A model generated the notes under the pieces. It was not told where the DNA came from and did not search any database. It saw only the letters and a list, made by a program, of their open reading frames with translations. Shown piece by piece: positions 8,230 through 8,931 of a stretch of DNA of 41,871 bases (position 1 is the stretch's first letter; every line of letters begins with the position of its first letter). Origin of the DNA: an uncultured Trinickia sp. (GTDB lineage Bacteria > Pseudomonadota > Gammaproteobacteria > Burkholderiales > Burkholderiaceae); assembly GCA_966431825.1 (NCBI GenBank), contig CBJMQH010000001.1, positions 1-41,871 on the forward strand. The letters run 5' to 3'. Both the position numbers and the translations under genes were made by a program.

Positions 8230-8931
8230 TCACTGCTGCCTGGCTACGACGCAATAAGCCGCCTGGGCTTCCTGCGCCACAGGACGGACGCAGTACGCTG
8301 CCGATGCCTCTTGCGCCACAGGCCGCACGCAATACGCCGCCGACGCCTCCTGCGCTACAGGACGCACGCAGTATGCCGCCGACGCTTCCTGCGCTAAAGG
8401 CCGCACGCAGTATGCCGCCGACGCTTCCTGCGCTACAGGCCGCACGCAATACGCCGCCGACGCCTCCTGCGCCACAGGCCGCACGCAGTATGCCGCGGCG
8501 CCTTCCTGCGACAGGGCCCGTACGCAATACGCCGCGTCGGTACCCGCCCCGCCGAACTCCTGAGCCGCCAGCACCTGGCTCGCGTCTGCCAGCGCACGGT
8601 GCCGTACCTGGTCCTCGCCCGGCACCATGCCGATGTATGGGTCGTGATGCAGCATGGCGCCAAAAATCTGCTCGCAGTCCTCACCATAGCGCTGCGTGTC
8701 GAGAATATGCAGATGCCAGAACTCGTCGACTTCTTCAGTCGGCACGATCGGCGCATCGGGATACTTCGCGCACAGCTTGAGGAAACGCCGATAGTCCGCC
8801 TCGGCACGTTCGATGGCCTGAGTCGTGAGCGTATCGCCATGCCGTTGCGCCATCTTGGCTTTGAGCCGGGTGAAATCGAGCGCATCGATTGCGTGCCACA
8901 TGGCGGCCACGTCGCGTGTCTGGTTGTTCAT
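8230..8931 (-). CDS. GRDP/DUF1399-like His-motif domain fused to eight AAYCV tandem repeats
   Basis: YRRFLKL...IVPTEEVDEFWHLHILDTQRY..DC..IFG.MLHHDP is typical of glycine-rich-domain-like proteins. RBS GGGAG. The C-terminal ~100 aa are repeats. Confidence 0.88.
   Translation of the reverse strand: MNNQTRDVAAMWHAIDALDFTRLKAKMAQRHGDTLTTQAIERAEADYRRFLKLCAKYPDAPIVPTEEVDEFWHLHILDTQRYGEDCEQIFGAMLHHDPYIGMVPGEDQVRHRALADASQVLAAQEFGGAGTDAAYCVRALSQEGAAAYCVRPVAQEASAAYCVRPVAQEASAAYCVRPLAQEASAAYCVRPVAQEASAAYCVRPVAQEASAAYCVRPVAQEAQAAYCVVARQQ
8233..8535 (-). repeat. Coding tandem repeat, 39-bp/13-aa unit (AAYCVRPVAQEAS), 7 full copies plus 1 partial
   Basis: Units start at 8535, 8496, 8457, 8418, 8379, 8340, 8301 and 8262. 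Most differences are synonymous. Confidence 0.98.

Follow-up and report, generated by a model that had tools for sequence, protein, structure and literature searches.

The 233-residue protein encoded at positions 8230..8931 on the minus strand of the DNA analyzed here, a 41,871-nucleotide stretch of a Trinickia contig that we refer to as the window, is on balance probably a self-processing precursor, and its sequence and that of its relatives favor a role in which it yields a small signal, derived from its own repetitive tail, for the sensor encoded next to it. The repeat-tailed gene is real and widespread. Its pairing with the sensor is strongly indicated by sequence comparisons to be a dedicated one.

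A His-motif domain fused to a repeat array

The gene and its parts lie as follows.

8230..8931 (-): whole gene by ORF call, 233 aa, His-motif domain followed by an eight-unit A-Y-C tail
8554..8931 (-): all-helical domain, aa 1-126, six helices, UCP032817-like (PF27765) and weakly GRDP-like (PF07173)
8707..8727 (-): D69-x-x-W72-H73-x-H75 motif, candidate metal ligands
8638..8649 (-): H95-H96-x-P98 motif
8233..8535 (-): eight AAYCV units with a 13-aa (39-bp) period, the final unit partial
8939..8944 (-): AGGGAG, a ribosome-binding-like site 7 nt before the ATG, in the 13-nt gap behind the sensor stop codon

The architecture proposed in the initial annotation, a His-motif domain with eight AAYCV units of which the last is partial, is confirmed by the ORF and by the 13-residue period. 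Three further conserved residues, T79, Y82 and C86, are positioned between the two motifs of the domain. A linker, FGGAGTD, joins it to the array, whose units start at residues 133, 146, 159, 172, 185, 198, 211 and 224, exactly 13 residues apart; Tandem Repeats Finder reports the corresponding 39-bp period with 7.4 copies and a score of 348. This gene is the sole frame with at least three [A/G][Y/F/W]C motifs among the 50,073 six-frame ORFs of the genome. Variant codons across units 2-7 comprise 10 synonymous and two non-synonymous differences, and this mostly silent variation implies that the frame is under protein-level selection. Contigs from public runs indicate that the array did not arise from assembly error, although none of the pieces reaches across all of it: pieces from run X1 tile the entire array with no other letters and at even depth, X4 supplies three matching pieces, and X5 and X9 contain both flanks plus parts of the array.

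Both a signal peptide and a membrane helix are absent from the protein (top 19-residue hydropathy 0.72). Judging from the 13-nt gap, the gene and the upstream sensor gene are likely to form one operon. Promoter and terminator scans at the locus gave nothing above chance.

Variable tails built on a constant core motif

The repeat gene is present in 30 of 32 genomes of the same genus. Of 29 Trinickia orthologues, 28 have at least four units; 27 have YC cores and one each FC and YS, and the spacers differ freely among the 29. This last observation removes the AQEAS spacer from consideration as the cleavage signal that it had been suspected to be. We then have 181 arrays from the wider family, defined by the pattern [YFWML][CS] and with redundancy partly removed, whose consensus is A/S-[Y 52%, F 18%, W 18%, M 9%, L 3%]-[C 93%, S 7%]; they contain 3-19 copies at a unit spacing of at least 7 residues. 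Most arrays are homogeneous (139/169 are at least 90% uniform in core residue), and all-Ser arrays occupy at least four separate places on a quick tree of the domain. No Thr-core arrays occurred among the arrays examined.

Given the Ser cores and the varied residue before Cys, what stays constant across the family is not Tyr-Cys but a small-x-Cys/Ser motif that goes with the domain. The earlier proposal that the domain is fused to its own repeated cores therefore survives in part: copy number and spacers vary as it would suppose and A-x-[C/S] is kept, but its Tyr-Cys chemistry does not carry over. The related expectation that homologue tails would vary in sequence and copy number holds, but what they retain is A-x-[C/S] and not an aromatic-Cys core. 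Cross-linking of Tyr to Cys can hardly be the family reaction, since Cys may be preceded by Y, F, W, M or L and entire arrays have Ser in its place. These Ser-only arrays also speak against the family serving as a thiol array that binds metal or polymerizes.

Among 147 family representatives, the tail contains Cys in 140, repeat arrays in 50, and an RP motif within the last 25 residues in 72. The first tail Cys lies 39-45 residues past the HxP motif (interquartile range), and Ala is found at position -2 of this Cys in 41 of 95 non-repeat tails, compared with a 10% background. Tandem repeat genes with different cores occur as well, with WCG and YSG arrays behind one kinase at L107:2190-3700, TC and KC arrays in the L269 pair, and another pair of different cores at L127 (G191). 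From their sequences, such tandems suggest two signals per locus.

Relatives with other kinds of tail have other surroundings. The second family member of this genome, L002 (G000:C176:2437-4194, -), combines the His domain with a TIGR04222 membrane domain and a Ser/Gly/Cys tail. The His domain is fused in five of 14 TIGR04222 loci and encoded by a separate neighbor in three; no MNIO was found within 1.5 kb of these His-domain-associated TIGR04222 loci, and the His domain may replace MNIO in TIGR04222-type systems. Relatives with non-repeat Cys tails adjoin peptidases or a methyltransferase plus TauD oxygenase, as judged from one scanned member of each cluster; the neighbors at L110, L114, L108, L113, L093, L111, L115 and L086 are methyltransferase plus TauD oxygenase, a ClpP-like SDH protease, or an S9 or M16 peptidase. 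Their gene content makes it possible that these loci are RiPP-like clusters.

Linkage to a CHASE sensor

The strongest clue to function, which the initial annotation missed, is the linkage of the repeat gene to a CHASE sensor gene. In the window the partner lies immediately upstream.

8945..12352 (-): partner sensor, 1135 aa, TM(26-54)-CHASE(96-291)-TM(354-378)-GAF(weak)-GGDEF-EAL, with GGDEF, EAL and DDFGTG intact
11480..12067 (-): CHASE domain of the partner clade, with the pocket Arg (AHK4 Thr294 position) at about 11687-11689

Only two CHASE genes are found in the genome, and both are within this locus. In a draw of Burkholderiaceae genomes, the repeat gene was present in 32 of 249 scored genomes (two could not be scored) and a close CHASE in 35 of 247 (four could not be scored). 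All 32 gene-carrying genomes have a CHASE-GGDEF-EAL sensor ~3 kb upstream, and the adjacency holds also in genera with patchy presence (6/25 and 2/25 genomes); because related genomes are non-independent, such co-occurrence counts overstate significance. Of the three extra CHASE genomes, G668 and G691 lack the gene, and in G001 the contig ends within it. Carriers of the pair include Cupriavidus necator, Trinickia dabaoshanensis and Noviherbaspirillum. A similar picture emerges from loci of named genomes (n=80), in which a CHASE gene is in the locus for 54 of 62 repeat-tailed genes, within 1 kb for 53, and for none of 15 non-repeat-tailed relatives. Of the eight repeat-tailed genes that lack CHASE, six are on short or cut contigs. 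The other two have full flanks: L088 faces a dCache sensor, and L103 (5071-7797, from Thiomargarita), with ATCTDKIYVDT-type repeats, precedes a TonB-dependent receptor in place of the CHASE sensor. Four genes with only one or two units are CHASE-linked too (L063, L065 and L077 among the short ones), and the short-tailed loci of the Cupriavidus basilensis group (L062-L065) have a conserved protein of 466-485 aa without a Pfam match just downstream. An independent metagenome set has CHASE for 38 of 74 arrays, and for 15 of the 17 with 1.5 kb on both sides. CHASE without the repeat gene is common, with a CHASE hit in 57 of 200 order-level genomes (a tally that includes G062, unpublished data on which no other result here draws).

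The type of partner varies between a histidine kinase, often in other Betaproteobacteria, and a GGDEF-EAL protein, and several partners are without PAS. The partner gene may be upstream, downstream or divergent, so that CHASE is the only shared part. We take the strict linkage to one CHASE clade as a pointer to signalling and away from a natural product that stands alone. The linkage could alternatively reflect regulation of the repeat gene by the sensor.

A diagnostic ligand pocket

Linked CHASE domains form one clade (SH-aLRT 97, rooted on unlinked domains) with three exceptions nested inside, the domains from G152, G668 and G691 described below; in this tree, L154 and L163 are rows of the linked class and L155 and L156 of the unlinked class. 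The CHASE domain is homologous to PDB 6k62 (E 1e-18) and 3t4j (E 9e-10). When the pocket residues of AHK4 are taken from Table 2 of PMC3491891, the columns most diagnostic of linked versus unlinked domains prove to be the pocket residues A202, V292, T294, Y318, G320 and A322. Arg occupies the T294 position in 61/63 linked domains, 36/36 new metagenome pairs and 5/29 unlinked domains, and Gly the G320 position in 63/63 linked and 1/29 unlinked domains, the 29 being the best-scoring hits among order-level genomes, not all hits, with a profile built from linked sequences. The unlinked domain with Gly at the G320 position comes from a genome that has a repeat gene elsewhere. Linked domains also have Gly at the A322 position (62/63) and Asn at the A202 position (60/63). 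In the CHASE-GGDEF-EAL proteins of G668 and G691 (same genus; L208 and L209), whose genomes yielded no repeat gene, the Arg is replaced by Asn or Ser. The orphan CHASE-receiver kinase at L211 (G152:C1:720500-721057) carries the complete pocket signature and lies a long way from the repeat gene of its genome; it could be a second or eavesdropping receptor.

At the positions of AHK4 D262, V292, T294, Y318 and A322, the partner has R, A, R, S and G and does not match AHK4, although PcrK also departs from AHK4 at some pocket positions, so that an adenine-like ligand is still compatible. After de-duplication to 64 pairs, it is the column of pocket residue G200 that says most about the hydrophobic residue of the tail, with T/N/S accompanying Tyr in 33/36, V/A accompanying Trp in 9/11 and Q accompanying Phe in 6/13. 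Within a 13-member clade in which cores are interleaved, V/A is found at this position in 5/5 Trp systems and Q in 7/8 Phe systems. Pocket columns outscore others in covariation with the core (Mann-Whitney p 0.022, uncorrected for phylogeny). An independent-pairs test of this covariation for Trp gave five pairs, about three of them going the same way and none the opposite (p 0.25), and the test for Tyr gave p 1, neither being significant; counter-examples at the G200 position include L056, where Tyr changes to Phe without a change in the column, and L091/L276, where Trp occurs with Asn. We therefore treat the tracking of the core residue by a pocket column, as seen in these alignments, as a lead.

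Conservation and fold of the His-motif domain

PF27765 is carried by 48 of 48 homologues found with residues 1-128, and Atlas matches named UCP032817-like score 0.91-0.92 with 200-205 shared features, while the PF07173 (GRDP-like) match is weak (19.8 bits versus a cut-off of 22.7, E 0.0013). A profile search with the domain collected 14,517 representatives at E<=0.001. In an alignment of 146 domain sequences, which left out three motif-less representatives, six multi-domain proteins and eight short or odd sequences, D69, W72, H73, H75, D78, T79, Y82, D85, H96 and P98 do not vary, and C86 and H95 hardly do. Among 23 distant members from Betaproteobacteria, T79, Y82, C86 and H95 persist but H75, D78 and D85 do not; the presence there of D69, W72, H73, H96 and P98 is partly imposed by the selection filter. 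Distant members of ~240 aa from Betaproteobacteria (L131-L153) have Phe in place of H75 and a [Y/F/H]-C-[G/A] motif ahead of a GCGGGCGGGD tail. The conservation of this set of Asp, His, Tyr and Cys residues hints, as a sequence pattern, at a metal-binding or catalytic site.

AlphaFold predicts a confident six-helix domain (10-residue-block pLDDT 91-98 across aa 11-120) with the first repeat undocked (pLDDT 44-61), and the predicted complex between the domain (aa 1-128), tail residues 129-185 and two Fe scored 0.02. Neither sequence search nor Foldseek against the PDB (E<=0.001) returned a solved structural relative, and comparison with metalloenzyme folds (hemerythrin, HD, heme-oxygenase-like, cupin) gave no Foldseek PDB match at the same threshold; the best VIA-align result for the first domain model was Z 4.3 with an rmsd of 3.8 over 96 residues. 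The sole fold matches are GRDP-like models from giant viruses (TM 0.5-0.6). The domain is also encoded on large viral contigs (L292-L298), where most copies end in a Gly/Ser/His/Cys tail with an F-C-G/S/A motif. Seven distant viral relatives with Gly/Ser/His/Cys tails have no aromatic-Cys arrays and no CHASE.

Neighboring genes in the window

Other genes around the pair are as follows.

12502..13680 (-): Gram-negative porin upstream of the sensor, in 28/90 loci, all Trinickia/Paraburkholderia-type
7469..7891 (-): 140-aa ORF directly downstream, beside the gene in 22/90 loci (Trinickia clade)
2975-7464 (-): MacB/FtsX-type ABC exporter, adaptor and outer-membrane channel, in the conserved Trinickia locus, this genome only
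1817..2988 (+): NarL/LuxR-type response regulator (1817-2464) and single-domain receiver (2578-2988), Trinickia-conserved
45..1820 (+): second, divergent CHASE-PAS-HisKA_3 kinase in a conserved Trinickia locus, its 5' part off the contig start

The porin is a possible accessory, and the HPF/RaiA-like character of the 140-aa ORF (score 0.86-0.88) is a lead only. An in-frame stop at 42-44 (+) in the second CHASE kinase, near the contig start, represents either a contig-end error or a real break. The earlier observation that no classical RiPP enzyme or protease is adjacent is borne out, with none among the 19 main ORFs scanned from 174 to 19,532. More generally, no conserved exporter, protease or tailoring enzyme was found near repeat-tailed genes across the loci compared. 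We considered the ABC exporter at 2975-7464 as a dedicated exporter and rejected it, its permease, adaptor and outer-membrane genes being present in none of 90 related loci. The MNIO of this genome was likewise rejected as the modifying enzyme: the only MNIO (PF05114) gene (L166, G000:C77) is unlinked and belongs to its own bufferin-type cluster on contig C77, the other genes of which we take to be a short Cys precursor, a partner, DoxX and a sigma factor.

A proposed mechanism and its alternatives

Taken from the sequence data, the most attractive model is that the His/Asp/Tyr/Cys domain modifies each A-Y-C unit of its own tail in cis, and that a small product then leaves the cell and binds the CHASE pocket of the neighboring sensor. 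Ligand binding would alter c-di-GMP levels here, and this same signal would act through a histidine kinase in other Betaproteobacteria. We infer that the domain is a metal-dependent enzyme working in cis and that the ligand derives from the tail. With CHASE placed between two membrane helices and the precursor lacking a signal peptide, a diffusible product would be the simplest link between the two proteins. There is precedent for a CHASE domain that is able to bind a processed peptide in SDF-2 and DhkA (PMC7316887).

Whatever the reaction, it has to work on Cys as well as Ser and with any of the five residues that precede them. Ring closure and an N-to-S/O acyl shift are both options within general peptide chemistry. 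Our first choice, which is speculative and individually rather improbable, is an oxidative closure of the aromatic-Cys/Ser dipeptide to a peptidase-resistant thiazole- or oxazole-type unit. Housekeeping peptidases would trim this azole unit to a small acid, whose carboxylate would pair with the pocket Arg, and such a scheme would explain why the spacers vary freely, why there are so many copies and why no dedicated protease or exporter accompanies the gene. We know of no precedent for an ATP-independent ring closure. The second choice, also speculative and a little less probable again, would have an N-to-S/O acyl shift cleave the chain ahead of every Cys or Ser, releasing peptides that end in Ala-Tyr-COOH. 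The pocket Arg fits a carboxylate product.

The linkage and pocket data also suit a reading in which the CHASE ligand does come from the tail but the domain is a mere carrier or chaperone, with housekeeping enzymes encoded elsewhere processing the repeats or plain dipeptides serving as the signal. Separate peptidases and oxygenases do adjoin the non-repeat relatives, and the domain has no catalytic fold match. However, the invariance of D69, H73, T79, Y82 and H96, together with the near-invariance of C86 and H95, is what one would sooner expect of an active or metal site than of a carrier, and an unmodified Tyr-Cys dipeptide would presumably make a poor private signal. We regard this reading as unlikely.

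To a similar degree we doubt that the protein is an output of the sensor, that is, a metal, redox or electrophile sink induced once CHASE detects an outside compound. Likely co-transcription behind the sensor across the 13-nt gap would suit such a role, as would the Cys in 93% of units, and Cys-tailed TIGR04222 proteins are discussed alongside copper-handling RiPP systems in PMC12452194. Yet a sink should not tolerate the whole-array change to Ser seen in at least four separate tree places, has no need for an aromatic that is fixed within an array and changes between species, and leaves the loss of the pocket Arg along with the gene unaccounted for.

Less probable still is that the protein regulates the sensor by direct intracellular contact, with the repeats as multivalent binding motifs. 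It is cytoplasmic, as judged by the missing signal peptide, and always near a sensor, but the partners share only the outward-facing CHASE domain and differ in their cytoplasmic parts (kinase versus GGDEF-EAL), and the diagnostic changes sit in a small-ligand pocket. Least credible is a stand-alone, burpitide-like, self-modifying RiPP with Tyr-Cys cross-links and no relation to the sensor, which draws on the fusion of the domain to repeated cores, its His-rich motifs and the YC cores of 27/29 Trinickia orthologues, but which is opposed by the F, W, M and L cores of 48% of arrays, the Ser cores of 7%, the absence of BURP CH motifs and a CHASE-clade linkage too strict for coincidence.

Should the self-processing precursor model be correct, the locus may define a new class of Gram-negative cell-to-cell signal, in which a ~125-aa enzyme without a solved structural relative makes tail-derived signals and the Tyr/Phe/Trp/Met/Leu and Cys/Ser versions are species dialects read by a co-evolving CHASE pocket. 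We consider this broader proposal plausible and just short of probable. The gene pair would provide a two-gene candidate for a self-made CHASE ligand controlling c-di-GMP, and hence biofilm and motility, in hosts that are soil and plant-associated Betaproteobacteria; the locus is near-core in Trinickia. If the model is true, the GRDP/DUF1399 superfamily (~14,500 clusters, plant and giant-virus members included) would gain its first chemistry, and CHASE receptors a ligand that bacteria make themselves. A peptide-modifying domain of 125 aa that is self-contained and takes varied cores would also be a useful enzyme.

Comparison with known systems

The system is undescribed in the literature searched, whose coverage left subscription journals largely outside. 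Proteins with PF27765 or PF07173 (DUF1399), including plant AtGRDP1/2, share the same domain with the repeat-tailed protein, and the plant GRDPs end in a Cys-interspersed Gly tail, according to PMC4299439. The repeat-tailed branch differs from other GRDP-like proteins in its CHASE partner and in a tail with periodic aromatic-Cys units. The literature that we found assigns no chemistry to the GRDP/DUF1399 family.

Kinship with BURP proteins or borosins, to which the initial annotation had likened the protein, finds neither a motif nor a domain match. Burpitide cyclases resemble it in that an enzyme-like, His-rich domain is fused to repeated cores, and have the BURP motif CHX10CHX25-27CHX25-26CH (both from PMC11253845); the 233-aa protein has no CH dipeptide and no BURP Pfam match. 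It differs from burpitides further in that the aromatic is replaceable by Met or Leu and Cys/Ser is the constant, and in being bacterial and sensor-linked. The Met, Leu and Phe cores of its homologues argue against a copper-dependent Tyr/Trp cross-link. Borosins are RiPPs made by a SAM-dependent alpha-N-methyltransferase that is fused to the precursor or split from it, the fused type being known from fungi. They are alike in their fused enzyme-precursor logic (bioRxiv 10.1101/2021.12.24.474128), whereas the repeat protein has a different, all-helical domain and no methyltransferase domain; no methyltransferase was found in the protein or its scanned neighbors, and none is conserved among repeat-tailed loci. 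What the 181 arrays do share with RiPPs is the combination of repeated variable cores with a constant recognition motif, A/S-[Y/F/W/M/L]-[C/S].

MNIO (DUF692) systems and TIGR04222 Cys-tail proteins are similar in having Cys-centred tails, and in 8/14 TIGR04222 loci the His domain is part of the TIGR04222 protein or encoded next to it. Unlike MNIO-modified RiPPs, this locus has no MNIO (PF05114) among the window neighbors scanned. TIGR04222 tails are treated as possible MNIO substrates in PMC12452194, where the words GRDP and glycine-rich are absent from the main text, while Fig. S3 and the tables could include relatives.

The partner CHASE is homologous to the sensor domains of AHK4 and PcrK, which respond to cytokinin, and of DhkA, which responds to the SDF-2 peptide. 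Its pocket is changed at the AHK4 positions T294 (R), V292 (A), Y318 (S/T), A322 (G) and A202 (N), and, unlike in their case, the gene for its ligand appears from the sequence to be encoded next door. A ligand described for a bacterial CHASE domain is the plant cytokinin for PcrK (PMC7072313).

This arrangement has parallels in Gram-positive bacteria. Peptide-derived quorum signals are well known there and scarce in Gram-negative bacteria, and the agrBDCA and comCDE cassettes place a precursor gene beside its cognate membrane sensor and have fast-changing signal types. The repeat gene, too, adjoins a membrane sensor (32/32 genomes and 54/62 loci), which we infer to be cognate. It differs from agr and com in its Gram-negative host, its CHASE receptor with c-di-GMP or kinase output and its many cores per precursor, and in lacking an AgrB-type or peptidase-ABC protein for processing and export, the adjacent ABC exporter being of the MacB/FtsX type. 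By analogy, then, the repeat locus would work like a cross between fused-enzyme RiPPs and Gram-positive peptide-pheromone cassettes.
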